Assembly (NCBI GenBank): GCA_009841115.1
Contig: VXML01000020.1
Coordinates: 11,438-75,437 of the forward strand
DNA length: 64,000 bases
Source of the DNA: Gemmatimonadota bacterium
GTDB lineage: Bacteria > Latescibacterota > UBA2968 > UBA8231
Direction: 5' to 3'
The notes under the pieces were generated by a model. The model ran no database searches. It was not told the DNA's origin and saw only the letters and a program-made list of their open reading frames with translations. The position numbers were made by a program, and so were the translations under genes. This document shows, one piece after another, positions 4,543 through 57,689 of this stretch. Each line of letters starts with the position of its first letter. Position 1 is the first letter of the stretch.

Positions 4543-7407
4543 ATGAAAAAGAGAACCCCGAGTCGCCTGAGCACTCGCCAGCAACGGACCTTGCTGGCCG
4601 TGGTGGTCTTGGGTGTCTTCATGGTCGCCGATACGCTCTATTTGCTGACCAATCGGCTGGCCGACGCCCTCGATTTCGACTACTTCGCCGTCACCGACAT
4701 TTCCCTGCCCAAGTTTTACCAAGTCATGGTGCTGTCGCATACGGGCGTCGGTTGGGTGCTGGTGGTGCTGGCGATGGGCTTTGTGGCTTGGCATTTACCG
4801 GCGGTGTGGCGCAAAAGCCGCAAGCGGGCCATCCTCACAGGCATCGCCACCCTGACGCTGGGCATTGTACTGGCCATCAGCGGACAGTTCATCCTCAGCG
4901 CGGCGAGCAACCGAGGCAATCCGGTGGCGTACTGGAGCCACGTGGCCGCGGCGGTTTTAGTCCCTCTCTTTTACTTGGCTCACCGTCGCCTCTCACTGTG
5001 GAAGCCCTCGGCGCGAAGCTATCGCATCGTGCCCATAGCGGTGGTTGGGCTGTTGGCGCTGGCCGTGGTGCTGCACGGGTTGAGCTATAGTGGCGAGCAG
5101 TACACTCAGGCGGCCGAGCAGGCATTTGCCGCTGGCAAGCACACCGGGCCGGGGTCCAAGGCGCGGGAGGTCGCTGACTTTGCTCCAGACGACTTTGTCC
5201 CTGCCAATTTCGTCCCGGCTGAAAGCCCCTTTTTCCCAGCGGCTACTACGACTACGACCGGCGACGTGCTGCCCTCGCGGATCATCACGCGCGGCGATCT
5301 CTCGCAGCCGGAAAAACTCGCCGGCGACCTCGACGAGTTCGGCTTCGTGGTCAACGAGCCGATTGGTTCGGAGACTTGCGCCCGCTGCCACGCGGCAATC
5401 GTCGAACAGTGGGCGACGTCAGCGCACCGCTTTGCCTCGTTCAACAATCCCTTCTACGAGGCGACGATCAACCACATGCGCGACAACTCGATCGAGAGCA
5501 ATGCGGAGGTTGACGCGCATATCGCCTATTACAAGGACTTGGCGGGCGAAGAGGCCAAAATCAAGTCCAAGTGGTGCTCTGGTTGCCACGATCCGGCGCT
5601 GATGCTGGCGGGCAAAATGACCGAAGAGATCGACCGCGCCTCGCCCCAGGCTCAAGCCGGCTTGACTTGTCTGGGCTGTCACGCCATCGACGCAATTCAC
5701 GACCAGACCGGCAACGGCAACTACAACATTGCCGACGAGCAGGAAGATCCCTATCTGTTCGCCAATGCCAAAGAAGGCGTGGGCCGCTTCGTGCACGACA
5801 CCGCGCTGAAGGCACGGCCCATCGTCCACAAGAAGCAAATGCTCAAGCCCTTCTTCCGCACCTCTGAGTTTTGCGCCACCTGCCACAAGGTCAGTCTCGA
5901 CTCGCGCGTCAATGGCTACCGCTGGCTGCGCGGCCAAAACGAGTTCGACAATTGGCACGATAGCGGCGTGGCGCTCAACGCCGCTAGGACCTTCTACTTG
6001 CCTGCTGTCAAGCGGGTCTGCCAGGATTGCCACATGCCGCTGGAGGAAGCGGTGGCTGGCGATGTATCGGCGCGGGATGGGTACGTCAAGTCGCATCGCT
6101 TTTTGGCGGTCAACACGGCCCTGCCCTTCATCCGCGGCGACGAGGAGACCATCGCACGGATCGAGGAATTTTTGCAAGACGAAAAACTCAGCGTCGATGT
6201 GTTCGCACTGCACCACCAAGAAGAAGCGCACTACGCGCTGGATAAGAGCCAGCCGGCGCTGGTGCCGGGCGGCGCGTACACATTCGACGTGGTGGTGCGC
6301 AACAAGGGCGTCGGGCACACTTTCCCGGGAGGGACCAACGATTCCAACGAGGGCTGGCTAGAGGTTTCGGTGGTGAGCGGCGACGATGAGGTGCTGGCTT
6401 TGAGCGGGGCAGTGCAAGACGACGGGCACGTCGATCCGGGGGCGCACTTTTACAAGGCGTTGATGGTCGATGCAAAAGGACAAGCCATCCACCGGCGCAA
6501 CGCCCAAGACATCGTCACCGCCGTGTACGTGCGCACTATTGGTCCGGGTACGGCGGATGTGGCGCACTATAGCTTCGAGGTGCCCGAGGACTACGCGGGG
6601 CGCAAGCTGACGCTGCGGGCGCGGCTGCTGTGGCGCAAGTTCGACCGCGCCTATACGGAATTTGCCTTTAACAACAACCGCCAGGGCTTCCGCCGCTTCG
6701 ACCAAGTGCCGGATTTGCCGGTAACTGAGATTGCTCGCGGCGAGGTGGAGTTGGTGGTGGGAGAGTCGTCCGTGACGGGTGCGCCGGATGCGGGCGACTG
6801 GATGCGCTTCAATGACTATGGCATCGGTCTGCTGCTCCAAGACGATACCCAGGGTGCCGCACGAGCCTTTGCGACGGTGGAACAGCTAGCGCCGGAGCGC
6901 TTGGACGGTTGCCGCAACTTGGCTAAGGTTGCAGTGCGCGACGGCCACTTGGAGCGGGCCTACGAGCATTTGGAGGACTGCGAGGCGTTAGTTAGCGGCG
7001 ACGGGCAGACGGCTTGGGTCTGGGGCGTGGTGTTGCAGGAGGATGGCCGCTACGAGGCTGCGGCGCAGGCGTATCGCCGGGTGTTGCGCGACTTTCCCGA
7101 GGATCGGGCGACGTGGCGCAACTTGGGTCGGGTGCTGTATCTAGATGGCCGCTTTGAGGAGGCTTTGGAGGCTCTCGATGGTGTATTGGCCATTGACCCG
7201 GAAGACCGCGTCGCCCACTACCACCGGATGCTTTCGCTGCGCGCCCTTGGCCGCGAGGATGAGGCCCTCGTCGCCGAGCAGGCTTACCAGTATTACCAGA
7301 TCGACGAGTCGGCGCAAGAGTTGACGCGCCGCTACCGGCTAGAGCATCCGCACGACAACCGCGAGGCGCTCAAGATCCACGTTCATCCGCTGGGGGAGGG
7401 TGGTTGA
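4543..7407 (+). CDS. Membrane-anchored multiheme cytochrome c (5 CxxCH) with C-terminal TPR repeats
   Basis: About 5 N-terminal hydrophobic helices; CARCH, CSGCH, CLGCH, CATCH, CQDCH; VGHTFP motif; TPR-like C-terminus. Confidence 0.85.
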   Translation: MKKRTPSRLSTRQQRTLLAVVVLGVFMVADTLYLLTNRLADALDFDYFAVTDISLPKFYQVMVLSHTGVGWVLVVLAMGFVAWHLPAVWRKSRKRAILTGIATLTLGIVLAISGQFILSAASNRGNPVAYWSHVAAAVLVPLFYLAHRRLSLWKPSARSYRIVPIAVVGLLALAVVLHGLSYSGEQYTQAAEQAFAAGKHTGPGSKAREVADFAPDDFVPANFVPAESPFFPAATTTTTGDVLPSRIITRGDLSQPEKLAGDLDEFGFVVNEPIGSETCARCHAAIVEQWATSAHRFASFNNPFYEATINHMRDNSIESNAEVDAHIAYYKDLAGEEAKIKSKWCSGCHDPALMLAGKMTEEIDRASPQAQAGLTCLGCHAIDAIHDQTGNGNYNIADEQEDPYLFANAKEGVGRFVHDTALKARPIVHKKQMLKPFFRTSEFCATCHKVSLDSRVNGYRWLRGQNEFDNWHDSGVALNAARTFYLPAVKRVCQDCHMPLEEAVAGDVSARDGYVKSHRFLAVNTALPFIRGDEETIARIEEFLQDEKLSVDVFALHHQEEAHYALDKSQPALVPGGAYTFDVVVRNKGVGHTFPGGTNDSNEGWLEVSVVSGDDEVLALSGAVQDDGHVDPGAHFYKALMVDAKGQAIHRRNAQDIVTAVYVRTIGPGTADVAHYSFEVPEDYAGRKLTLRARLLWRKFDRAYTEFAFNNNRQGFRRFDQVPDLPVTEIARGEVELVVGESSVTGAPDAGDWMRFNDYGIGLLLQDDTQGAARAFATVEQLAPERLDGCRNLAKVAVRDGHLERAYEHLEDCEALVSGDGQTAWVWGVVLQEDGRYEAAAQAYRRVLRDFPEDRATWRNLGRVLYLDGRFEEALEALDGVLAIDPEDRVAHYHRMLSLRALGREDEALVAEQAYQYYQIDESAQELTRRYRLEHPHDNREALKIHVHPLGEGG

Positions 7408-7952: not shown

Positions 7953-8083
7953 GTCGAGCTAATCCGATTGCATTCTTTTTGCGTGTCGGTTACTCTAGCA
8001 AACACTTGTGTATCAACCTTTCACACTGCTAAGGCTTAATGGGAAGAGATATGACGAGGAAGTACGTAATAGGCGCAAATTTT

Positions 8084-9862
8084 ATGCCAACATCTCATAG
8101 CACGATCTGGCGACTGTTGGTCGGCGCGGTGTTATGGACTGCGTGCGGCCCGGAAGAGCCTTCGGAACCGGCTCCGAAGCCTGAGTACACCAAACCGGCT
8201 GCCGACTACGCAGTGGGGCGCGGGCGGAAAGAGGCTCCTGCGGTGCGCTTTGTCGATGTGACGAGGGAAGCTGGTCTCGAATTCAGGCACGAGACCGGTG
8301 CGCGCGGCGACAAGTGGATGCCGGAAACCATGGGCAGTGGCTGTGCGCTTTTTGATTACGATGGCGACGGCTGGTTGGATGTGCTCTTGGTCAACAGCGA
8401 AGGCTGGGGCGGCGAAAAGGCTCCCGGCAAGCTCTACCGCAATCTCGGCAACGGCACCTTTGATGACGCGACGAAACGCGCGGGTCTAGACTTCTCGGTC
8501 TATGGCATGGGCGCGACGATTGCCGACTACGACGCCGATGGCGACCCGGATATCTACCTGACGACCTTGGGGCCGAACCTGCTCTTGCGCAACGACGCGG
8601 GACGCTTTGTCGATGTGGCGCAAGAAGCGGGCGTGGCAGGTGCGGTCTGGCGGGACGATGCGGGCAATGAGAATCCCGAATGGTCCACGGGCGCGGCTTG
8701 GGTTGATGTGGATGGCGACGGATGGCTGGATCTGTTGGTTACCAACTACGTGCGCTGGTCAGCTAGCACCGACATCTACACCACGCTCGATGGCAAGGGA
8801 AAGTCCTACGCCACGCCACAGCAATACCCCGGCTCGACGCCGAGGCTCTACCGCAACTTAGGCGAGGGTCGCTTTCGGGAAATAACTGAAGAAGCCGGTC
8901 TGCTGTTGCCCGAAGGCAAGTCCATGGGCGTGGCCATGACCGACTTTGAAGACGACGGGCGCATTGACTTGGTCGTCACCAACGACACCCAGCCCAATTT
9001 CCTGTTGCAAAACTTAGGTGGGGGTCGCTTTGCGGAACGGGGGCTCGCCGCGGGCATCGGCTACGACGAGACTGGGCGGGCGCGAGCGGGGATGGGCGTA
9101 GATATTACCTCGGTTGCCAACGACGGCGTGCTCTCCATCGCCATTGGCAACTTCAGCCGCGAGGCGCTCTCGCTCTACAGCCAAGCTGGAAGTGAGGTCT
9201 TCGTCGATGCTGCGGGTAAAGCTCGGCTGATGCAGGCGACGCTGCAGCCGCTGACCTTTGGACTGCGCTTTTTCGACTACGATCTCGACGGCTACCAAGA
9301 CCTGATCTTGGCCAATGGGCACATCGAGCCAGAGATCAACTCGACGCAGAAGGAGATCGAGTACCAGCAGGCACCGCAGTTGTTTTGGAATGACGGTGAC
9401 GGGCGGATGGTCGAGGTGTCGGAGCAGACGGGCGGGCCATTTCTCAAGCCAGTGGTGGCGCGAGGACTGTCCGTCGGCGATATAGACGCAGACGGCGACT
9501 TGGACGTGTTGCTGACGACCAATGGAGGTCCAGCTTATCTATTGCGCAACGAGGGGCCGACGGGCCGCGTGGTAGAGCTTGACCTGACGGGCAAGGCACC
9601 CAATCGAGACGCGATCGGCGCGAAGGTGACTGCGCGGGTGGGCGAACAGGAGCAGGTGTTCATGGTGCGCACGGGATCTTCCTATTTGAGCCACAGTCCG
9701 ATGAGCCTGACCGTTGGTTTGGGTGAGGCTGAGCAGATCGACCGCTTGGAGATTCGCTGGCCGGATGGGACGGTGGAAGCTCTTGAACAGCTCGCGGCCG
9801 GGTCGCGCTACGACATCGCGCAGGGTGAGGGTGTTGTGGGGAAGAAAGCTTTTGTGCAGTAA
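8084..9862 (+). CDS. CRTAC1/ASPIC-UnbV family FG-GAP repeat protein (probable lipoprotein)
   Basis: ETMGSG, repeated DYDGDG.LD Ca-binding motifs, NRDAIGA.V, GSSYLS, EIRWPDG; LWTAC lipobox-like; start uncertain (8039-8084). Confidence 0.9.
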   Translation: MPTSHSTIWRLLVGAVLWTACGPEEPSEPAPKPEYTKPAADYAVGRGRKEAPAVRFVDVTREAGLEFRHETGARGDKWMPETMGSGCALFDYDGDGWLDVLLVNSEGWGGEKAPGKLYRNLGNGTFDDATKRAGLDFSVYGMGATIADYDADGDPDIYLTTLGPNLLLRNDAGRFVDVAQEAGVAGAVWRDDAGNENPEWSTGAAWVDVDGDGWLDLLVTNYVRWSASTDIYTTLDGKGKSYATPQQYPGSTPRLYRNLGEGRFREITEEAGLLLPEGKSMGVAMTDFEDDGRIDLVVTNDTQPNFLLQNLGGGRFAERGLAAGIGYDETGRARAGMGVDITSVANDGVLSIAIGNFSREALSLYSQAGSEVFVDAAGKARLMQATLQPLTFGLRFFDYDLDGYQDLILANGHIEPEINSTQKEIEYQQAPQLFWNDGDGRMVEVSEQTGGPFLKPVVARGLSVGDIDADGDLDVLLTTNGGPAYLLRNEGPTGRVVELDLTGKAPNRDAIGAKVTARVGEQEQVFMVRTGSSYLSHSPMSLTVGLGEAEQIDRLEIRWPDGTVEALEQLAAGSRYDIAQGEGVVGKKAFVQ

Positions 9863-26386: not shown

Positions 26387-26493
26387 GGTTCAACTTTTCT
26401 GTGTAGTGTATTATAAGAATTTTTTTGGGAGCTTGGTCAAGGTCGAGCGCATGGGCGACTGCTGCCCGATGCGCCCGGACACACCGACATCGC

Positions 26494-27384
26494 ATGATCA
26501 AACTCGGCTGCAACGCTATGCTGCGGGTCGCCGAAGACCTGCCCTATGCCGACAAGGAAGACCCGCGCAACTGGCTGGATATCGCCGCCCTGGTGCGCCA
26601 GATCCGCGCCTGGGACCTCGACGTGGTCGATTTTCAGCTCTTCCGCGGCTTCCGCGCCCGGGACCCGGCCTATCTGCGCTCCATCAAGGCCCTCTGCCAG
26701 CAGTGCGGCCTGCCCATTGGCTTTTTGGGCGTGGGCCGCGGCTTTGTCGGCGTCGAGCAGATCGACGGCCGCCCCCAGGGCGTTGCCCTGCCCCAAGCCG
26801 AACGCCGCCGGCGCATTGCCGAAGTCAAAGAGGGCATTGATCTGGCCGCCTTTATGGGCGCGCCCTTGGTCCGCCTCTTCGGCGGCGGCATCCCCGCCGC
26901 AGCCGTCGACCGCCGCGTCCTGTGGCAGGACGCCATTGGCAGCTTCCAAGAGGTCTGCGACTACGCCGCCGGCAAAGGCGTGTTCGTCGGCCTCCACAAC
27001 CACGCCCCGGTCATCGCGCCCACTGGGGACGATATTCTCAAAATACTGCGCGATGTCAACCGCGAAAACTTCACCTTCATCCTCGACACGGGCTGGTGGC
27101 AAGGCTCGCCGGGCGCGGCGCCCTCCGGGGCCGAGGATCCCGCGGTCGACTTCTATGACTTCATGGAGCAGACCGCGCCCCACGCCACCTATGTGCGGGC
27201 CAAAATATACAAAATTGACCGCGGCCGGGAGGAGTGGCTTGACTATGAGCGCATTGTCGAAATTCTCCGCCAAGTCGACTTCAACGGCAATATGTCCATC
27301 GTCTTCGAGGGACAGGGCAATAAGGTAAGCGATCTCGAGGCCATTGGCCTGGCCGTCGACTACCTGCGGGGATTGCTCGCCTAG
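26494..27384 (+). CDS. Sugar phosphate isomerase/epimerase (TIM barrel)
   Basis: A..MGAPLVRLFGG, LHNH, LDTG, F.G..SIVFEG. Confidence 0.85.
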   Translation: MIKLGCNAMLRVAEDLPYADKEDPRNWLDIAALVRQIRAWDLDVVDFQLFRGFRARDPAYLRSIKALCQQCGLPIGFLGVGRGFVGVEQIDGRPQGVALPQAERRRRIAEVKEGIDLAAFMGAPLVRLFGGGIPAAAVDRRVLWQDAIGSFQEVCDYAAGKGVFVGLHNHAPVIAPTGDDILKILRDVNRENFTFILDTGWWQGSPGAAPSGAEDPAVDFYDFMEQTAPHATYVRAKIYKIDRGREEWLDYERIVEILRQVDFNGNMSIVFEGQGNKVSDLEAIGLAVDYLRGLLA

Positions 27385-27536
27385 AAGCGGTTTCATACTC
27401 AGGCAATGGCCAGTTCCCGCAGGCGCGCGACCATGGCCCGCCTGCGAGGACCGGCAGTCTCGATCAGGTGATCGGTATAGGAGAACGGCCGGATCAGGGC
27501 GCGGAATCGGCCGACTTGGAGTGGGGTCAGCATGGT

Positions 27537-28637: not shown

Positions 28638-29912
28638 TTAAGTTGGTTGTTCCACTTCCACTAATACTCGGCGTTGAGCTGAGTCAAAGGCGACTAAAGT
28701 AGCTCCATCCTCTAGCAGGAAAGTGTCGCTTTTGAAAGCGGCGCGGTTCGAAACTCGCGTCAATGGGCGGCCACCCACCCGCACTGAGCGCACCTCTCCG
28801 TCTGTAAGGCGCAGAGTCAGGTCAGGGGTCTGCACCGGCAGATCGAGGCGGATGGTGTTACCCTCTACTGCGATCTCGGCCATTGCGCGGGCGCAGGCAT
28901 AGGTGGTGATTTGGCTACAGGTGCGCCATTGGGTGCGCTCCCCCCTCGGATCGCGCTCGGCGAGGCGGCTTACCACTTTCTTGAATGCGTTAAAGCCGCG
29001 CCGGTCCTCATCGTGTAGCCCATAGAATCCCTGCCAATGGCTGATGAGTACAGCCGGTTCGCCCGCGTCGATGAGGGCTGGTAGGCGGCCACCCTCTAAG
29101 TCGGGAGTGATGTATTTGTCGGCATTGACCTCGCCATAGCCGGTCCAACTGCCGGTCCAGTCGCCGGTGGAGGCGATGATTTCGCCGGTGGCTTGGCCGG
29201 TTTGGCGATCGGGATACCACACGGGGGTGTCCACTGTGTCTTCCCTAGAGACTCGCTGAAAAAAGTAAGGCACTCGGTTACCCGTGACTTGGCGCACGGC
29301 TTCGCCAGCACAGCGGGCGTAAAAGGGCAGGGTGCGGCCGCCGAAACCACCCGGTGAGGTTACTCCTTGCGGCGTCAGGCCCACAGCGACTAGAATGCGG
29401 CACGCTTGGGCGATGTACTCGGTGACCAACTCCTCTTGGTCTTCGGGCAGCGCGGCCCAATCGTATTGCTCCCATATTCTAGAAGGGAGCGGCTGCAAGG
29501 TTTTGGGATTTAACACGAACGTGTGGGTGAGCATCTCGGGCGTGATGTCGAAAGCGGGGACGATGACCTCGCGGCACATGGTCAGCCATTCGTCTTGCTG
29601 GGCTTTGCTAAAAAGAGGAAGTCCCTCGTCAATGCGTCCTAGGGCCGCTGGGCAGGGCACCACTGAAAACTTGCCTCGGACGCCGCTTGCTAGGCACCAC
29701 TCGGCGAATTCGCGGGTAAAGGACTCAGGATGGACCACCGGCAGGTCCTCCCAGCGCTGGGAACGGCCCTCGGCGATGGTGCGGTCGCGGAGGAAGAAAT
29801 AGTTGAGGTTGACCAGCACCGTGGAATCGTCGAAGATGATGGACAAGGGCACTCGATCAAGGGCGTGACGGGCGATTTCAGCGAACAGGGGACACCTCCT
29901 TTGTTGTAACAA
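28638..29912 (-). CDS. Hypothetical protein (polysaccharide-deacetylase-like barrel)
   Basis: 424-aa ORF; GVRGKFSVVP.PA, PEMLTH, GVTSPGGFG, SHWQG; start uncertain. Confidence 0.55.
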   Translation of the reverse strand: MLQQRRCPLFAEIARHALDRVPLSIIFDDSTVLVNLNYFFLRDRTIAEGRSQRWEDLPVVHPESFTREFAEWCLASGVRGKFSVVPCPAALGRIDEGLPLFSKAQQDEWLTMCREVIVPAFDITPEMLTHTFVLNPKTLQPLPSRIWEQYDWAALPEDQEELVTEYIAQACRILVAVGLTPQGVTSPGGFGGRTLPFYARCAGEAVRQVTGNRVPYFFQRVSREDTVDTPVWYPDRQTGQATGEIIASTGDWTGSWTGYGEVNADKYITPDLEGGRLPALIDAGEPAVLISHWQGFYGLHDEDRRGFNAFKKVVSRLAERDPRGERTQWRTCSQITTYACARAMAEIAVEGNTIRLDLPVQTPDLTLRLTDGEVRSVRVGGRPLTRVSNRAAFKSDTFLLEDGATLVAFDSAQRRVLVEVEQPT

Positions 29913-30026: not shown

Positions 30027-32696
30027 ATGCGACCGGTGACCAGTCGCCCGCGCGCCGCCGTGCGCCTCGCCGGTGCGGCCCTGCTGCTCAGTGGCTTGGC
30101 TTTCAATCCGCTGTCCCTCGCGCATTTTTTCCCGGGGCATCCGCTTGGTATCGAGGGTATCATCGTCCTGCAGATTGCCTTGCTCTTTGGCGGCGGTTGG
30201 CTCGTTTGGCGATGTCCTCGGCTGCCGCTGATTTCCATTGCCCTCGTTGCCCTCGTCTTTGGCACGTTTGCCGTCCTCGGGGGATACGGCACGATCCGCT
30301 CACTGCAAAAGGTGCAGGAACGCAACCGGCTCTTGGCGACTATTGACCGCAGCGAAGCGGTGCAGCAGCACCTGAGCGGCGAGGCTCTGCCGCTGCTTGC
30401 CTTGGGGATGTACCAAGGTCAACTGCCCGCTGCGCCGGCTCGCGCGCTTTTTGCCCCTGCGGTTGATGTTGCGGACGTGGAGCAGACGGCAGAGGCGACC
30501 GAAGTAGTCCCGGCGCTGGGCATTAAGCGCAAGCGATGGCGGATTTTACCCACTGAGCAATTCCACGGTTCCGACATTCAACTATGGGAGCCGCTTTTTG
30601 CCGCGATGCGTTCCTGTGATTATGCGGCCTTCCACATTGAGACCGGGCATTTTCTCGACGCGGAAGAGGCAATATACCAAGCCCGTGTGCGCTTTGACGC
30701 CCTAGCACAGACACAAGACGGGGAGCGCGCGCAAATACTGGCTCGGCTGGTGCTTGACTGGCAGCGGCAGGAAGATGACACTTGGCGGATTCGACGCTGG
30801 GAGACCGAATCGCTGGAGATGCTCACGCGGGAATACGCGCTGTTTGCCGAAGTACTCGACGAGGCGCTCCCGCGCGACGAGGACCGCGCCCAGGCTAGGT
30901 TTTCGCGCCACGCCGAACTGGTGCGCCAGTCGTTTAGCGACTCCGCGTTCGTCGCGCCGCATCGCTATTTCACTCGTCAGGCATTTGACCGCCATCCCGG
31001 CATCAGCGTCGTGGATATCGACGCCGATGGGTACGACGACCTGTACATTGCCGTGCGCCAGGGTCGGAACATGCTGTTGCACAACGGCGGCGATGGCACG
31101 TTCACCGAGCGCGCGGCCCAATACGGCCTTGATGTGGAGCACCACACGGCTGCTGCGCTTTTCGCCGACTTTGACAACGACGGTGACCCGGATGTATTCC
31201 TCGGCCGCACGCTTGCGCCCAGTCTTTACTTGGTCAACGAGGACGGGCACTTCGCTTCCCGCGACTTAGGCGATGGCGTCTTGCCGTTCCTCGTGGCCTC
31301 GATCTCGGCGGCCGATTACAACGGCGACGGTCTGCTCGATGCGTACTTTTCCACGTATGCCGCGCGGATGTTGCTCGCCGCGGCCCCCTCCGCGTCCCGA
31401 ACTGATTCTTGGGGAGGCGCGCTATTGGCCGACTTCCTGTCTGCGGACCACGCTCGCGCGCTCTACGACCTGAGCCGCGACCGCATCGGCCACCTTATCT
31501 ACGACGCGCCAGGGCCGCCCAACGTCCTGCTGCGCAATCTTGGTGACGGTCGCTTCGCTGCAACTGCCGCTGTGTGGCGCAATACGTTACAGGCGACTTG
31601 GGCCGACTACGACCGCGACGGCGACCCGGATCTCTATCTCGCCAATGACTTTGCCGCTAACAACTTGCTCCGTAACGACGGTGGTGCCCTCGTTGATGTT
31701 ACCGCGGAGAGCGGGGCCGCGGATCCGGGCTTTGGCATGGGCGCGAGTTGGGCCGATTACGACGGGGACGGTCGCCAAGACCTGTACGTGACCAACATGC
31801 ACAGCAGCGCTGGTCGCCGCATCACGGAAGCCGCCGGGCGGGCGGGTGCGGCGTTTGCCCCTTTGGCCCGGGGCAACTCCCTCCTGCGGAACGGCAGTGA
31901 GGGTTTCACCCTCGTTGCAGACTCGCCGGTGGAGGATGGCGGCTGGGGCTGGGGCGGCCAGTTTTTGGACTTTGATAACGACGGAGATCTCGACATCTAC
32001 GCTCTTAGTGGCTACTACACCCCGCCGTCCGAAGTCGCTCTCCCCGAGGATACCTGAAGCCTGTTTTGGCGCACGGTCGTGCGTCATGGCCGGACGGATG
32101 GGGCGTACAATGTGGGGGCGCGGCTCGACGCGGGGGCCTCGCTTAGCGGATACCAGCGCAACCGCTTCTTTCTCAATGTAGAAGGTCGCGACTTTATCGA
32201 TATATCGGGTTTGTCGGCAGCGGATTCGCCTGCGGATGGTCGCGCCTTCGCTACCTTGGACTTTGACCGCGATGGGCGCATTGATTTGGCTGTCGTCAAT
32301 GCCAACGAGCCGCTCTGCGAGCTGTTTGCCAACCGCAGCAAGGCGGGGCACGTCCTCGCGTTGCGGTTTGTGGGGGGTAACGACCGCGACGAGATTTCGC
32401 GCGAATGGAGCGTGCGCGATGGGTATGGCGTGCAAGTGGAAGTGGATGTCGGCGGGAGGACGCTGTTGCGCGAGCACCGAGCCGGCGAGGGCTTCTCGGC
32501 CCAAAACAGCGCTACCTTGCTCGTCGGCTTAGGCGCACATCAACGAGCGGATGCCGTGCACGTGCGTTGGCCTTCGGGGCGCGCGCAGCAGGTTGCAGAA
32601 GTCGCCGCTGGTATGCTGGTGACAGTCTATGAAAACCCTCGGTACTCGCCTACGGAGGCGGCGTTTGTGGTGGTGCCGTACCGTAGGACGCCGTAA
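30027..32696 (+). CDS. Membrane-anchored CRTAC1/ASPIC-UnbV FG-GAP protein with in-frame TGA at 32055-32057 (candidate selenocysteine)
   Basis: ORFs 30027..32057 and 32079..32696 are in the same frame separated only by TGA: ...PEDT-(TGA)-SLFWRTVV...SLSGYQRN; the FG-GAP propeller continues and the ASPIC domain (GEGFSAQ, VRWPSG) lies downstream of the TGA. Confidence 0.8.
32058..32090 (+). promoter_or_regulatory. Putative bacterial SECIS hairpin
   Basis: TGGCGCAC-GGTC-GTGCGTCA stem-loop (32067-32086); loop begins 17 nt after the TGA; extra GCC/GGC lower pairing. Confidence 0.7.
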
Positions 32697-46820: not shown

Positions 46821-49115
46821 CTAGTAAGCTACGTTGATGATTTGCGCCAAGTTTTGGACTGCTGCTTGGGCGTCGATTTGGATTCGGCACACGTAAATCC
46901 CCGGAGGCACGCGCCGTCCCTCGTCGTCTGCGCCATTCCACGTATAGACGAGGTAGCCGTCGCTGCTGCGGCCGCCGGCCAACGAGCCAACCTGCCGCCC
47001 GTCGAGCGCATAGATATCGACTGCTATCGGGGCGTCTGTCTTTAATACCGCAAAGCGAATCTCGGCGTGGTCGCCGATTCCGTCGCCGTTGGGCGTGAGG
47101 ACTTTGGGCGCAATGGAGACTTTGTCGAGCAAGCTCTCGGACGCGGGCACTTCGGGCAGAAATACCGTGGTGGCCGCCCGCCCGGCCGGATCGACCTGCT
47201 GCCAGAACTCCATCTCGTCGGTGTGGCCGACAAAGGCAGAAAAGAGATAGGGATTGGCGAATACGTTGACCTGTAGGTCAATTTCGACCTCTTGCCGCCG
47301 GACAACTTGCGACAGTTCCACTACCAGCGAGTCGGGCAACAATTCTAAGGAGGCCGGCTCGACCTCGGCACCGGCGACGCGGATGACTACGCTCTCGGCT
47401 GCTGCTTGCGATGGCGTGTTTAGCCGCAGGCGGTTAAAGCCCTTGTCGCCAGATTTGAAGTCCGGCTGCAATACGTACGTAAAGTTTTCCGGCTGGCCCA
47501 CTTGGGCCTCGTTGGGAGTAACTTGGCCGAGCGCCCCGTTGAGGAACGAATCCGTGTAGTTGAGCTTCAGTCCCTTTAGGGTGGGGGCCACGTCTGGGCT
47601 GTCCGATTTGAGCAGTACCCTGAATTGCACGTAGCGTCTCGGGCTGGGTGAGAGAAACTCTTGGCCGGAAAACAGATAGGTGTTGCTCCAGCCGCTCCAA
47701 TCTGGGGTCGGCCGAATGTAGGGCACGATGTCGCCTTTCCACCGTTTCTTCAAGTCGTTGTATTCGTCTTCGGTCACTTCGTGGCCCTTGCGGTGGTAAT
47801 ACGTATTGCCTTCTTCGAGACCGCTACCCGAGCGCGTCTGTGCCAAAACTTGCGTTCCCGCGGGTAAGTCGGCGTCCCATTCAAGGGTGCGGAAAACCTT
47901 GGGACTATCATCTACCTTGAGGAAGTCCGAGCGCAATTCTACTTCAGCGACATAGCCGGTGGGTACGACGACGGCTTCGGCCATCGCGCCGCTGCTACTG
48001 CCCCCGAAGATCATTTCGAGATAGCGCAGGGGCCGGTACGGGTGCATGAGATAGGTGATTGGCTCGGGATTGTTCCAGTCGCTTGGCGCAGGGAAATCGA
48101 AGAGGACGTCGAAGTCGACGTCACCCGAGGGCTTGAGCTCGCCGGCCGACCCCAGCAGCCGGTGGCGCAAGATGCGCGGCCGGCCCCAAGTGGTGGTCTC
48201 CTGAAACGCTACGAAGATGACGCGGTTGACCCAAAAGACCGCGCCCAAATCCCAGCGCCACTGGGCGATAAACTGGCCGGTTTCACTCCAGTTGAGTTCC
48301 TCCCAGAAGGTATTGACATTGCCGTCGATCATCGCGGGCGCGCGCTCCTTGCCCTGATCGTCGATGATCCCACCTCGGGCCACGGTCCCTTGGGCGATGT
48401 TCTGTCCAAACGCGATGACCTCGACCTCTGCGAGGGCCGCGTCCTCGCTCTTGACGTCGGCTATGATGCGGATGTATTGGGTGGGCGCGAAGGCTGTGGG
48501 GACGTCCGTGTCTTCGGCAGGTTGGCCAAAGCTCAGCACCCTTTTGGTTGCTTCGCCAAAGGCCACTGGATACGACAAGAGGGTCTCTTCGTTGCGCTTG
48601 GTCGTGCCGCCGATGAGGTTAAAGAGGAAGACATCGTCGGTGATTGATTGGAATTTGCCGTCAGAGCCAAAGACCCGGAGTGCTCGCAGCGGTCGCGCGC
48701 TTTCTTCATCGGGAAAGTGCAGGCGAACTTCCTTGACGGCCACCATCCTGCCCAAGTCGATTTCGAGCCACCAGGTGTCGAGCGGGTCGTCTTGGCTGGG
48801 TTTCCAGTAAGTGGTGGTGTCGTCGTCGATGATCAGATGGGCATCAGCCGCGTTGGACCCGGCCTTCCACACCCCGCCGCGCTGCTCTTTGACCTTCTTT
48901 AGCTCGTGCGTGAACAGAGGGGAACTCGGTGCGGCGTTGAAGGGCTGCTCAAACTTGACCGGCCGGATTGATCCATCCGCTCGCAAGTCAACAGCCCCGA
49001 CCGGGTAGGTCCACGTCTCCCACTGCGCCTTGGTGTTTATTTCAAAAACCTCTTGAGAATGGGCAAAACTCGCTGGCAAAACTAGCGTCAGCAAACAAAG
49101 CCATAGTCGGTTCAT
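46821..49115 (-). CDS. Secreted protein with discoidin-like modules and C-terminal FlgD-Ig domain (paralog 3)
   Basis: Signal peptide; IDDD.TTYW, W.EIDLG, WSGWS, SPSPRRYVQF, TPNGDG, WNG.D..G..VPPG.Y, ends NVAY. Confidence 0.8.
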   Translation of the reverse strand: MNRLWLCLLTLVLPASFAHSQEVFEINTKAQWETWTYPVGAVDLRADGSIRPVKFEQPFNAAPSSPLFTHELKKVKEQRGGVWKAGSNAADAHLIIDDDTTTYWKPSQDDPLDTWWLEIDLGRMVAVKEVRLHFPDEESARPLRALRVFGSDGKFQSITDDVFLFNLIGGTTKRNEETLLSYPVAFGEATKRVLSFGQPAEDTDVPTAFAPTQYIRIIADVKSEDAALAEVEVIAFGQNIAQGTVARGGIIDDQGKERAPAMIDGNVNTFWEELNWSETGQFIAQWRWDLGAVFWVNRVIFVAFQETTTWGRPRILRHRLLGSAGELKPSGDVDFDVLFDFPAPSDWNNPEPITYLMHPYRPLRYLEMIFGGSSSGAMAEAVVVPTGYVAEVELRSDFLKVDDSPKVFRTLEWDADLPAGTQVLAQTRSGSGLEEGNTYYHRKGHEVTEDEYNDLKKRWKGDIVPYIRPTPDWSGWSNTYLFSGQEFLSPSPRRYVQFRVLLKSDSPDVAPTLKGLKLNYTDSFLNGALGQVTPNEAQVGQPENFTYVLQPDFKSGDKGFNRLRLNTPSQAAAESVVIRVAGAEVEPASLELLPDSLVVELSQVVRRQEVEIDLQVNVFANPYLFSAFVGHTDEMEFWQQVDPAGRAATTVFLPEVPASESLLDKVSIAPKVLTPNGDGIGDHAEIRFAVLKTDAPIAVDIYALDGRQVGSLAGGRSSDGYLVYTWNGADDEGRRVPPGIYVCRIQIDAQAAVQNLAQIINVAY

Positions 49116-49131
49116 AGCTACCGCTCCTTTC

Positions 49132-51075
49132 TCAATACGCCACACCCATGCTGCTAGAACGCACGAGTGTCCCGCGTTCAGTGTGGACTTGGACCACGGC
49201 GAGGTACAGCCCTGGCGGGACTACCTGCCCTTGATCGTCGCGCCCATCCCAAGCCATTGCATAGGCACCACTGGTGCTTTCGGCTTCAAAGACGGTATGC
49301 ACTGGGCGACCGGCCAAATCGAAAATTTCAACAGAGACTTCAACCGGCTTTACTAGCTGCAACAGGCTGTAGATCAGTTCTACTTGGTCGTTGATCCCGT
49401 CCCCATTGGGCGTGAAGACCGGGCTACTCACCGCCAAGGAGGACACCAACTGGCTGGCCGAAGCGGCCGTCGTCAGCACCCGCAGAGCATTGGTCAGCAC
49501 TTCTGGGTTGGCGTCGCCGGGTTGCACCCGCTGCGGTACGCCGTCCTCGGCCTGCGAGTCAAATACCTCAGCTTCGACCGAGGTGCCTTGGATGAAAATC
49601 TGCGAGTCGAATACGGCGCGCATGCGGTGAATGCCGACCTCCGGCCGCTGCGAGGAAAAGAAGATGGTCAGACTGCCTAGTTCCGCTTGCACGCTGTCGG
49701 GTGTGACCTCGACCCCATCTTCTCCAGTGAAGAACTGCCGAAACACTGGCGTCGATTGGGGGGTGAGGATGCGCAGGGCGTCAAAGCCGGTGTCTGTTTC
49801 CTCGATTTGGCCTACGACATCGTAGGCAAACGTCGTAAAGTCTCCGGCTGTTACAATGGGCACGTCGCCGGGGGGGCGGGGGACGTCTAACTGGGAAATC
49901 TCGGCTACTAAGATCTGGGCCACAGGCGGGATCGTGTGTTCGACGCTCAGCGATGTGAGCCGTAGGCCGTCGAGGATCGCGCCGCTTTCGATTCGCACCT
50001 CAAACTGGAAGTAGCGCCTTGGGCTGGGTAGTTGGATGGGTTGGCCGGACTCAGTGAAGGGGGGCGACCACAGGCTCCAGTTGACTTGGTCGTCGTCAAT
50101 CGGGCCGCGCACACTTTCGTCAAGGGCTCTGTACTCGTCTTCGGTGACGACCTGTCGCTCGCGGGTAAAGAGATCGGTGTACTCGTAATAGACCCGGGGG
50201 TTGTCATCTAGGCCGGTGCGCATAACCACCGTCAAATCGGCGTCAGCGGCTGGCTCGACGACTAGCTCGTCGCCACTTTGACGCAGCTTTTCCAGCGTCC
50301 ATTCCATGCGACTGAAATTAGCTGGCTCTCCGAGGTCGATGATCTTTGACCGATAGGAGCCGGCCGGCGCGAATCCCGCACCGAAGAGTTGGAATTCGGC
50401 CAGTTCAAACGGGCTGGCCGAGGTAACTTCTAGTTCAATGTAACGGACAAATTGTAGAGGAAAGTCGATCTGCGCCGTGTTCTCACGGGTAAAGTCAACG
50501 CGCTTTATGGGAGCGTAGATCGGCTCGTCCCGCTCGTTGAAGCTCGCGCCGTCGTTAACTTTGAGCACGTAGCCGCGGATGTAGTCTTCGCTGAATGGTC
50601 GCCCTTCTGAACTGATGCCCTCCAAGCGCGGAAAAAACGCAATTCGATTGGCGGGGAAGCGGGTCCCCAAATCAAAGAAAAACTTAGTGCCGTCTTGGGC
50701 GATGCCGAAGCGTTTAAACGCGAGGTGGGTGGAGGTCGTGTCGATGCCATCGACGATCTCCAACAGAGGGCGCACGACCGCTACGTTGTCCCAAATCAGT
50801 GCTTGGGCGCGTTCCTCCACGTAGCCACTGGGAAACCCATCGACCCAAGTCAGGCTCGGAATGACGTTGTCCTTAGAAGTAAAGGCTACGAGTTGGATGG
50901 CACCTGGCACGTTGAAACTCATGGCAGTGGAGAGCAGCGCGTGCTCCCGCCAAGCGGCCCCTTCGTCCCCGCCCACCACCCACTGGCGGACTTCCGCAAC
51001 TGCCGATTGTGGAGCGAGGACCACAGCGGCTGTACACAGGGCCGCAAGGCGATAAATTGTCGTGCGCAAGTCCAT
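49132..51075 (-). CDS. Secreted protein with C-terminal FlgD-Ig domain (paralog 2)
   Basis: Signal peptide; FDLG, WSLWS, PSPRRYFQF, FTPNGDGIND, WDGRD..G..VPPG.Y, ends GVAY. Confidence 0.8.
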   Translation of the reverse strand: MDLRTTIYRLAALCTAAVVLAPQSAVAEVRQWVVGGDEGAAWREHALLSTAMSFNVPGAIQLVAFTSKDNVIPSLTWVDGFPSGYVEERAQALIWDNVAVVRPLLEIVDGIDTTSTHLAFKRFGIAQDGTKFFFDLGTRFPANRIAFFPRLEGISSEGRPFSEDYIRGYVLKVNDGASFNERDEPIYAPIKRVDFTRENTAQIDFPLQFVRYIELEVTSASPFELAEFQLFGAGFAPAGSYRSKIIDLGEPANFSRMEWTLEKLRQSGDELVVEPAADADLTVVMRTGLDDNPRVYYEYTDLFTRERQVVTEDEYRALDESVRGPIDDDQVNWSLWSPPFTESGQPIQLPSPRRYFQFEVRIESGAILDGLRLTSLSVEHTIPPVAQILVAEISQLDVPRPPGDVPIVTAGDFTTFAYDVVGQIEETDTGFDALRILTPQSTPVFRQFFTGEDGVEVTPDSVQAELGSLTIFFSSQRPEVGIHRMRAVFDSQIFIQGTSVEAEVFDSQAEDGVPQRVQPGDANPEVLTNALRVLTTAASASQLVSSLAVSSPVFTPNGDGINDQVELIYSLLQLVKPVEVSVEIFDLAGRPVHTVFEAESTSGAYAMAWDGRDDQGQVVPPGLYLAVVQVHTERGTLVRSSSMGVAY

Positions 51076-56093: not shown

Positions 56094-57689
56094 TCAAGGC
56101 TCGTACACGATCAGGAGCTGGTCGGCTGCGATGTCTTGCAAGTGCTGTACGGCGCCGCTGGGCCAGTGGATTTCCACCTCATCGACGCGGGTGTGGTCTC
56201 CCAGACCGAAAAAGGGGCGCATTGCGCTTTGGCACATGTAGCTCGACCCGGCGCGCACCACGTCCCAGCGCACCCAGTCGCCTGCGGCGACGCGGACCTC
56301 GGCCCCGATGGAGTTGCCGACCAACCGCAAGCTCAAATAGTGCTGGGCGTTGCCGCCGTCGTTGCGCAAGAGCGCGGCAGGCTGGTTGTTGTTGGCTACT
56401 GCGATGTCGAGGTCGCCGTCGTTGTCGTAATCGCCCATGGCCGCGCCGCGGCTCACTTGCTGCAACAGCAGGCCCGGCCCCACCTGATTGCTCACGTCGG
56501 CAAAGCGTCCTTCCTGATTGCGGAAGAGTTGGTTTTGCTGCGCGTATGTCACCGCGTCGAACAGGTGAATGTTGTCGTCGAGGTGGCCGTTAGCGACAAA
56601 CAAATCGCGGTCGCCGTCGTTGTCGTAGTCGATGAAGAGGGTGCCCCAGGCGAGGAACTGCAAGCTGGGGACCCCTAGCCCGGACTGAAAGGTCACGTCG
56701 GCAAAAAATCCGTTGCCGAGGTTGCGGTACAGGCTGTTGGTCTCCCACTGATAGTTAGTGACGAAGAAGTCGAACCGGCCATCGCCGTCGTAATCGCCCA
56801 CGTCAACCCCCATGCCAGCTAGCGGCTTGCCCGCGTCGTTGTAAGCCACTCCGGCCAAAGCGCCGATTTCGGCAAAGCGGCCGCCGTCATTGCGGTAGAG
56901 CAAGTTGGGGGTGCGGTCGCCAGCCGCGTACAGGTCGAGATCGCCGTCTGCGTCGTAGTCGATGAAAAAGGCCCCTAATTCCTTGGCGGCATCCGGCAGC
57001 AGTCCGGCTTCCTCAGTGACGTCGGCGAAGGTGGCGTCGCCTTCGTTGCGATAAAAGATGTCGCGTTGTGGCTCAAAGGCCTCTGGGCCGCAGTACACCG
57101 CAATCCCGGAGCGGAGGCAGGGCTCGTGTATCTCAGGGCGAAACTTGGCGTAATTGGCCACGAAGAAGTCCAAGTCGCCGTCTAAATCGTAGTCGGCAAA
57201 GGCCGCGCCCGTACTCATCGCTGGATTGACTAGGACTGGCCCGGCCACGCCGGCTTGGTCGGTTACATCGGCGAACTGGCTCGTGCCGTCGTTGCGGTAG
57301 AGGATATTGGGGCCGTACGCAGTGATGTACAAGTCCAAGTCGCCGTCTGAATCGTAGTCGGCTGCGGCACAACCCAGCCCGTAGCCCGAATTGGCCACGC
57401 CAGCTTGGTCGGTTGCATCGGTGAACTGACCGGCGCTCGCGTTGCGGTAGAGCGCACCCGGCCCGACGCTGTTGACGAAGTACAGGTCGAGCCACCCGTC
57501 GCCATCGTAGTCGAAAAAGGCCGTGCCCGAGCCCATGGTTTCCATTGGATACTTTTGCCCCTCGGCCCCGTTTTGATGGCGAAAGGCGATCCCCGCCTCG
57601 GCTGCTACTTCCACAAACTGTACCTCGGCGCGGCCCAGCGCGGCCCACAGGCACGCTAAAGCAGCTCCTAAGAGGGCGCGCCGCGTCAC
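56094..57689 (-). CDS. CRTAC1/ASPIC-UnbV family FG-GAP protein
   Basis: Signal peptide, ETMGSG, DYD.DGD.D repeats, GSSY..Q, FGLG, WPSG. Confidence 0.92.
   Translation of the reverse strand: MTRRALLGAALACLWAALGRAEVQFVEVAAEAGIAFRHQNGAEGQKYPMETMGSGTAFFDYDGDGWLDLYFVNSVGPGALYRNASAGQFTDATDQAGVANSGYGLGCAAADYDSDGDLDLYITAYGPNILYRNDGTSQFADVTDQAGVAGPVLVNPAMSTGAAFADYDLDGDLDFFVANYAKFRPEIHEPCLRSGIAVYCGPEAFEPQRDIFYRNEGDATFADVTEEAGLLPDAAKELGAFFIDYDADGDLDLYAAGDRTPNLLYRNDGGRFAEIGALAGVAYNDAGKPLAGMGVDVGDYDGDGRFDFFVTNYQWETNSLYRNLGNGFFADVTFQSGLGVPSLQFLAWGTLFIDYDNDGDRDLFVANGHLDDNIHLFDAVTYAQQNQLFRNQEGRFADVSNQVGPGLLLQQVSRGAAMGDYDNDGDLDIAVANNNQPAALLRNDGGNAQHYLSLRLVGNSIGAEVRVAAGDWVRWDVVRAGSSYMCQSAMRPFFGLGDHTRVDEVEIHWPSGAVQHLQDIAADQLLIVYEP

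Follow-up and report, generated by a model that had tools for sequence, protein, structure and literature searches.

A probable selenocysteine codon, with a downstream SECIS-like hairpin, in the gene for a CRTAC1-like propeller protein of a Latescibacterota bacterium

The paradigm of a selenocysteine (Sec) insertion sequence (SECIS) lying within a bacterial open reading frame (ORF), with SelB-dependent recoding of UGA, is fdhF of E. coli. Exported selenoproteins of the TlpA/ResA type (NF041054, motif WAxxUGC) have Sec within the CxxC motif of a thioredoxin fold. Proteins of the CRTAC1/ASPIC-UnbV family consist of FG-GAP repeats followed by an UnbV_ASPIC domain, and we know of no catalytic or redox role for CRTAC1. 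The gene described here occupies positions 30027-32696 of a 64,000-nucleotide stretch, hereafter the window, of contig VXML01000020.1 (positions 11,438 to 75,437, forward strand; assembly GCA_009841115.1, labelled Gemmatimonadota bacterium and placed by GTDB in the Latescibacterota). A first-pass annotation had proposed that an in-frame UGA in this gene is recoded as Sec in a CRTAC1-like protein. The machinery of the genome, a TGA found throughout the genus, selection on the codons downstream and covarying stems in relatives all support that proposal; on this comparative evidence we consider it highly probable that UGA 32055-57 specifies Sec, and very likely that the insertion mechanism is the ordinary bacterial one (SelB/SECIS).

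As had been noted, the ORFs 30027..32057 (676 amino acids) and 32079..32696 (205 amino acids) form a single reading frame interrupted only by the TGA, which both the ORF list and the DNA confirm. When the TGA is translated as U, the protein is 889 residues long; U677, within PEDT-U-SLFWRTVV, is its sole recoded position, and a TAA at 32694-32696 ends the frame (Table 1). The hairpin claimed to lie directly 3' of the UGA is also present in the DNA: arms TGGCGCAC (32067-32074) and GTGCGTCA (32079-32086) flank GGTC, and the loop starts 17 nucleotides (nt) after the UGA. The bacterial SECIS (bSECIS) model, as set out in section 5 of a 2026 review of the prokaryotic selenoproteome (PMC13188914), comprises a loop of 3-9 nt with a G in its first two positions, a stem of 4-16 base pairs (bp), a distance of 16-37 nt after the UGA and an energy of <= -7.5 kcal/mol. 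The hairpin at 32067-32086 falls within all four limits, with its GGUC loop, 8-bp stem, 17-nt spacing and energy of -11.6 kcal/mol when folded by itself.

Table 1. Features of the putative selenoprotein gene (positions in the window; residues numbered on the 889-residue read-through protein).
Feature	Position	Strand	Basis or remark
Complete putative selenoprotein coding sequence	30027..32696	+	889 codons + TAA, U at codon 677; open frame, dN/dS
N-terminal hydrophobic helices, residues ~14-88, ~three predicted spans	30066..30290	+	model helices H17-24, H28-34, H39-62, H65-130
FG-GAP beta-propeller, residues ~325-770	30999..32336	+	FG-GAP_3 (PF13517) 126.6 bits, FG-GAP (PF01839) 75.7, both above cut-off
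UGA probably read as selenocysteine, U677	32055..32057	+	TGA conserved at the column in genus, phylum and other phyla
SECIS-like hairpin, 8-bp stem UGGCGCAC/GUGCGUCA, apical loop GGUC (32075-32078)	32067..32086	+	inverted repeat, bSECIS criteria, entropy, covariation
Cys764, speculative candidate partner of Sec677	32316..32318	+	C764 in 19/19 genus orthologues
UnbV_ASPIC domain, residues 799-862	32421..32612	+	PF07593 54.9 bits vs cut-off 23.4; wholly downstream of the UGA

The succession of UGA, 17-nt interval, G+C-rich hairpin and GGUC loop is like that of the formate dehydrogenase alpha SECIS, the comparison being with the FdhA-like gene of the same genome and not with E. coli. That gene has the motif SRA-U-HAP and a hairpin GGUUGCC-GGUCU-GGCAGCC whose loop lies 18 nt after the UGA; it encodes a molybdopterin enzyme (G000:C45:16973-17707 (-), L136) that is not a canonical FdhA because it scores 152 bits against TIGR01553, for which the cut-off is 814. 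Unlike formate dehydrogenase, the host protein here is outside the known oxidoreductase families, the stem overlaps the conserved peptide WRTVVR, and two stem registers are found across the family.

The assembly consists of 112 contigs, is 94.55% complete and has 7.6% contamination. Its Sec machinery, on which the proposal depended, comprises selB (343.3 bits; cut-off 242.25), selA (566.5; 267.9), selD (374.7; 125) and tRNA-Sec (71.9; 47), all four above their curated cut-offs. These genes sit on contigs other than that of the window, which makes contamination a possible worry, but selA is found in 31/31 genomes of the genus and, in single-contig assemblies, on the same chromosome as the TGA gene, which counters it. 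With one in-frame TGA of its own, selD (G000:C110:7969-8892 (-), L013) is itself a selenoprotein here, with the motif GG-U-ASK; its hairpin CUGGCA-GGUC-UGCCAG lies 42 nt after the UGA, beyond the 16-37 nt of the published model, and a second hairpin lies closer. In a genome-wide scan, 17 of 233 GGTC-loop hairpins came after a TGA with an open frame, and four of these candidates were looked at, namely this gene, selD and two others that proved to be out-of-frame noise.

In a sample of 168 genomes from the phylum, searched at E<=1e-80, the gene was matched in 33, including 28 of the 30 other genomes of the genus (66-93% identity). Outside the genus, matches occurred in two of three genomes of g13 (51-52%), one of ten of g22 (39%) and one of two of g25, which belongs to another family (48%). 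There were 34 matched places: a single in-frame TGA interrupts 32, and the other two are N-terminal pieces that stop short of the site. All 30 same-genus loci examined (L024-L051) have TGA at the Sec column, as do a same-genus paralogue and four loci spread over three other genera of the phylum; both column and DNA were verified in L024-L054, L056 and L055, all of which have TGA at the same place. The possibility that the TGA is a read error, which would have undone the proposal, is thus excluded because the codon recurs in dozens of independent assemblies.

Beyond the TGA, the frame remains open for 209-234 codons in 19/19 genus orthologues, three of which terminate in TGA, so that this codon still serves as a stop in these genomes. 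The ratio of nonsynonymous to synonymous substitution (dN/dS, Nei-Gojobori), calculated for the genus orthologues with L038 excluded by a strict motif filter, was 0.125 over the 212 codons downstream of the TGA vs 0.154 upstream, with dS ~0.54; judged by these ratios, the codons after the TGA are under purifying selection. Across 937 alignment columns, the nine-codon window with the lowest third-position entropy begins at the TGA (0.158; mean over the gene 0.624), and all 19 orthologues have identical codons at +5 to +8 (CGC ACG GTC GTG).

When species genomes were scanned with the family alignment, at least 79 loci were found under record labels that include Acidobacteriota, Planctomycetota, Verrucomicrobiota, Latescibacterota, Myxococcota, Cytophagia, Gemmatimonadetes and proteobacterial metagenome-assembled genomes. 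Among the matches listed (79 loci), the Sec column is TGA in 44, Asn in 14, Glu in seven, and Ser and Ala in one each, with no Cys; in the other 12, the column was not covered or not aligned. Of 62 unique sequences, 56 follow the UGA directly with AGC or AGT; TCN codons for Ser are almost never used there, and UGA-A-G may be a selected context. Three of the matches listed (L126, L129 and L134) read 'DL*' and then diverge downstream (LPF...), and represent either another TGA-bearing subfamily or a misalignment. In the phylum of G189 (labelled Pyrinomonadaceae), 30 of 201 genomes match the TGA form of G189 at E<=1e-100, a count that includes the query genome itself and G266, an unpublished genome; an in-frame TGA occurs in 33/34 matched places, counted anywhere in the match and not at the level of the column. 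Two in-frame TGAs per match were seen in G397 and G298 of that sample, and these may include a second Sec. The selA gene was detected in 26/27 of the TGA-locus genomes tested and in 21/23 non-TGA-locus genomes, vs 1/14 control genomes.

SECIS scoring was applied to the 67 unique TGA and 21 unique non-TGA sequences from all collected loci, with perfect stems only. The bSECIS criteria were passed by 54/67 of the former vs 4/21 of the latter, and the best hairpin puts the loop 17-18 nt after the UGA in 61/67 TGA sequences. The stems themselves are diverse: GCGCAC/GUGCGC, GCGCGC/GCGCGC, GCGCAA/UUGCGC, GCGCGU/AUGCGC, GGAGCAC/GUGCUCU, GCGUCA/UGACGC, GGCGCCAC/GUGGCGUC and GCGACG/CGUCGC. Covariation was assessed in two ungapped alignments, register A with 41 sequences and register B with 18, in which the named helix is paired in 87.2% and 90.5% of cells, vs 16.8-74.6% for a 3' partner displaced by 1-3 columns. 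Both sides of a pair have changed in three cases in register A and two in register B, and in neither register did any of 500 shuffles attain the observed covariation score or percentage paired. That some of the compensatory changes replace amino acids (L079, for example, has WS..VL) points to selection acting on the RNA. The first-pass annotation had looked to homologues for TGA or Cys at this column together with a covarying hairpin: the TGA and the hairpin are there, but Cys is very rare and relatives without Sec mostly have Glu or Asn. Among the Glu-type members, L063, L065 and L067 keep a relic stem, GCGCAC-CAUG-GUGCGC, which others of this type have lost, a pattern that would fit an origin from a Sec form.

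Several observations weigh against recoding. The hairpin is absent from the minimum-energy structure of 32055-32115, and the fold of this 61-nt segment is unexceptional (z = -0.11; 89/200 shuffles fold equally well or better); moreover, GGTC-loop hairpins with stems of >=6 bp occur 233 times across the genome, and the conserved peptide WRT(V/M)VR by itself forces part of the stem. In a single sequence, the hairpin is therefore no better than chance, and its significance comes from the comparison across genomes. There, 13/67 TGA sequences miss the strict criteria, most of them narrowly on energy in the perfect-stem search, 4/21 non-TGA sequences satisfy them, and the relic stem (-8.9 kcal/mol) is kept in 3/7 Glu-type sequences, with no early G in its loop. 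Since 21/23 non-TGA genomes also have selA, its presence does not separate the two forms. Finally, Cys at the column is rare, occurring in one of 60 full-length database proteins (P0018) and in none of the 79 loci among the matches listed; one distant in-genome paralogue (28% identical) aligns a Cys there, in a BLAST alignment only. Homologues with Cys in place of Sec are usual for selenoprotein families, although not obligatory.

Three other accounts of the TGA were weighed. That it is a recent nonsense mutation or an assembly error in a pseudogene could be argued from its being the only in-frame stop in an otherwise intact gene, but the same TGA in 32/34 places in the phylum and in 44/79 loci of other phyla among the matches listed, together with purifying selection downstream, refutes this, and we give it essentially no weight. 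Termination at the UGA, yielding a 676-residue propeller fragment and a separately initiated ASPIC protein of ~205 residues, is hardly credible: databases do call the upstream part as a protein of 663-723 residues in many assemblies (P0061-P0120), and a candidate GTG start at 32079 lies eight codons past the TGA. This GTG, however, sits within the hairpin stem; the stretch separating this start from the TGA codes for S678, W681 and R682, three residues that never vary in full-length relatives; no in-frame start after the TGA is conserved, L113, L085, L064, L086 and L130 having none in the first ~13 codons; and the break would divide one fold, the whole of which matches CRTAC1 as a single chain. 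Comparative data demonstrate read-through and an RNA element but not the identity of the inserted residue, and with Cys homologues nearly absent, it might be supposed that an ordinary tRNA (a near-cognate one for Trp, Cys or Arg) reads the UGA with the help of the hairpin and that no Sec is involved. We regard this as very improbable, since the element fits a SelB-type loop in content and spacing and resembles the SECIS of the FdhA-like gene, since the TGA forms occur in selA-positive genomes (26/27, and 31/31 in the genus, vs 1/14 controls), and since codons for Trp and Cys, one mutation away, are unseen at the column in the 79 loci among the matches listed.

If the UGA is recoded as we propose, the hairpin would present its GGUC loop 17 nt downstream of a ribosome positioned at 32055-57 and, acting as a bacterial SECIS, would recruit SelB with Sec-tRNA(Sec) so that Sec is inserted; translation would then run through a further 212 codons, which encode the rest of the propeller together with the ASPIC/UnbV domain. 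The product is expected to be a membrane-anchored, outward-facing, CRTAC1-like propeller with Sec677 in a family-specific insertion. A predicted model built with 61 sequences (mean predicted local distance difference test score, pLDDT, 81.8; predicted template modelling score, pTM, 0.81) consists of the N-terminal helices, an alpha/beta domain at ~136-305, the propeller and a beta-sandwich at the ASPIC domain. Among solved structures, Foldseek ranks murine CRTAC1 first (9etn_A; 17% identity, E 9.1e-26, TM-score normalised on the target 0.67). From the sequence, the N-terminus is probably a membrane anchor of about three spans with the rest of the protein outside the cytoplasm; relatives have signal peptides or lipoboxes in place of these spans. 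In the model, the DFDNDGDLD blade is followed by an insertion that holds Sec677; this residue stands at the start of a helix (676-686), beyond which comes a disordered segment (689-703). The protein ends 27 residues past the ASPIC domain and has no C-terminal tail. Although like CRTAC1 (9etn) in domain order and predicted fold, the window protein differs from that family in its membrane anchor, its extra N-terminal alpha/beta domain and the helix-bearing insertion with Sec, which is missing from most aligned in-genome paralogues. The alpha/beta domain (window ~30432-30941) has no Pfam match; it is modelled with pLDDT above 90 and is conserved in homologues, W245, W253 and W258 being invariant.

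The read-through protein had been said to have the architecture of two paralogues in the window (8039-9862 and 56094-57689). They do contain the same three Pfam families (FG-GAP_3, FG-GAP and UnbV_ASPIC), at ~25-30% identity to the 889-residue protein, but they lack its first ~320 residues. A motif scan of the genome revealed no TGA-type paralogue other than the 30027-32696 gene, and this genome has no orthologue of a Sec-plus-redoxin paralogue present in genome G017.

Sixty full-length database homologues, from Verrucomicrobiota and Methylomirabilota and named CRTAC1 family or FG-GAP-like, are 42-48% identical to the window protein over residues 560-889. At the Sec column, 57 have Glu, and Asp, Ser and Cys (P0018) are found once each. 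Most of these homologues have a C-terminal tail of ~147 residues, in which a CxxC is retained in 5/60, P0018 included, and in only four of the 57 Glu-type relatives; among untruncated genes reconstructed from the loci, 36/47 TGA forms vs 4/19 non-TGA forms have a CxxC tail. Six of the 11 TGA forms without it carry U-S-C. Against Pfam Redoxin and AhpC-TSA (cut-offs 26.6 and 26), the tails of L056 and L100 score 58.8 and 50.4 bits and 58.3 and 52.7 bits, respectively; in the same comparison, P0018 (30.9) and L066 (26.3) are above cut-off and L052 (25.5) is just under it. The L056 tail also matches the NCBIfam models TlpA (69.1 bits), ResA (60.1) and NF041054 (32.1), all below cut-off. These relatives are like the TlpA/ResA-type selenoproteins in carrying a TlpA/ResA-like redoxin domain and in being exported, but their CxxC is all-Cys, with Sec ~250 residues upstream in the propeller; the window protein differs further in having no redoxin domain. 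Close pairs of TGA-type paralogues with U-S-C and no redoxin tail exist at some planctomycete and verrucomicrobial loci (L085:5448 with L085:8358; L079:2563).

Sec stands at the N-terminus of a helix, a thioredoxin-fold CxxC or a nearby Cys accompanies it, and the CxxC has decayed where Sec has been replaced; together these features suggest a selenol/thiol redox relay. In such a mechanism, the propeller would hold an oxidised substrate for reaction with the selenol, and the selenol would then be recycled by a thiol partner, which in most relatives would be the fused TlpA/redoxin-like CxxC domain or the Cys two residues after Sec. The window clade has neither, and its partner may be a separate protein or Cys764, which is the only invariant cysteine of the clade outside the predicted membrane region; in the 60 distant homologues, this column is almost invariably Phe. 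A thioredoxin-like partner was not found among the neighbouring genes scanned. These include genes for dehydrogenases, beta-lactamase-fold proteins and a glycerophosphodiester phosphodiesterase, as well as two (26437-27396 and 28638-29912) that have no Pfam match. Cys819 was considered as a fixed partner of Sec and rejected, since among the TGA forms 12 have C at this column, 15 have A and 16 have G.

The redox or catalytic site suggested by the first-pass annotation therefore receives indirect support from the redoxin-like CxxC tails and U-x-C of relatives, neither of which is present in the window protein itself. This absence counts against a redox role, as does Ala819 in the window clade, where 58/60 homologues have Cys, and the conserved Glu or Asn at the Sec column fits a metal ligand as well as it fits a lost redox site. 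We put the chance that the protein functions as an extracytoplasmic selenol-based oxidoreductase at about even. It is more tentatively that we suggest Sec to be the active site of a novel extracytoplasmic enzyme activity in CRTAC1/ASPIC propellers, this family, treated until now as adhesin-like scaffolds, descending from, or including, selenol-dependent catalysts; we lean somewhat against that broader claim. Because Glu and Asn are conserved in relatives, a live rival is that Sec is real but is a ligand of a soft metal such as copper, with the propeller serving to bind or handle metal in the periplasm and the TlpA-like tail keeping the site reduced. TlpA-type domains have a role in the assembly of copper centres. 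The non-Sec relatives have clade-conserved Glu (57/60) or Asn (14/79 loci among the matches listed), which are typical ligands, unlike the Ser, Ala or Gly usual at dead redox sites; the FG-GAP blades have Dx[DN]xDG calcium-binding motifs (PMC3123361), seen in the sequence itself; and several of the selenoproteins in Table 1 of PMC13188914 bind metal. The U-x-C and CxxC partners, however, fit thiol/selenol exchange equally well, and no His/Cys cluster co-conserved specifically with TGA was seen, column 819 being variable (C 12, A 15, G 16), so that we consider metal binding an unlikely, though not negligible, role.

Relative to the 2026 catalogue and NCBIfam, the protein family is new, as the first-pass annotation had supposed in not recognising it as an established selenoprotein family. 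Table 1 of PMC13188914 lists 119 families, and the whole of that table has no FG-GAP, ASPIC/UnbV or CRTAC1 entry; the terms FG-GAP, ASPIC, VCBS, CRTAC, propeller and Gemmatimon have no occurrence in the main texts of the 2026 review, deep-Sep and BSepDB, and ASPIC, FG-GAP and UnbV are likewise absent from the main text of Kim et al. 2016 (PMC4807772). The window protein (P0001) has no match in NCBIfam release 20.0 at E<=0.01. A search of article full texts for selenoprotein or selenocysteine together with FG-GAP, ASPIC, UnbV, CRTAC1, VCBS or propeller gave nothing relevant among the matches listed. Public databases hold the orthologues as ~670-residue 'VCBS repeat' fragments.

Two other proteins of the window may be recorded. 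One of 954 residues (4543-7407 (+)) has multihaem cytochrome signatures (MtrC/MtrF-like, paired CXXCH, NapC/NirT), most of them below Pfam cut-offs, and C-terminal tetratricopeptide (TPR) repeats. The other, of 774 residues (46821-49145 (-)), has an F5/8 type C (discoidin) domain and a weak match to the CHU_C type IX secretion signal (25.2 bits vs a cut-off of 27).

Because gene callers split the gene at the TGA, a family present in many soil and marine phyla has been systematically mis-annotated and is missing from the catalogues. As far as the literature found goes, this would be the first selenoprotein on a beta-propeller, and it would provide a first functional handle on the bacterial CRTAC1/ASPIC proteins, namely a reactive residue, an RNA signal and, in relatives, a fused thioredoxin partner. 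It is unusual that Cys forms are so nearly absent, and this may help to show when Cys cannot replace Sec. If the active-site reading is true, Sec would not be replaceable by Cys here, so that lineages losing Sec switch to Glu or Asn and the CxxC of the fused thioredoxin decays; by fold homology, that reading would then include animal CRTAC1.

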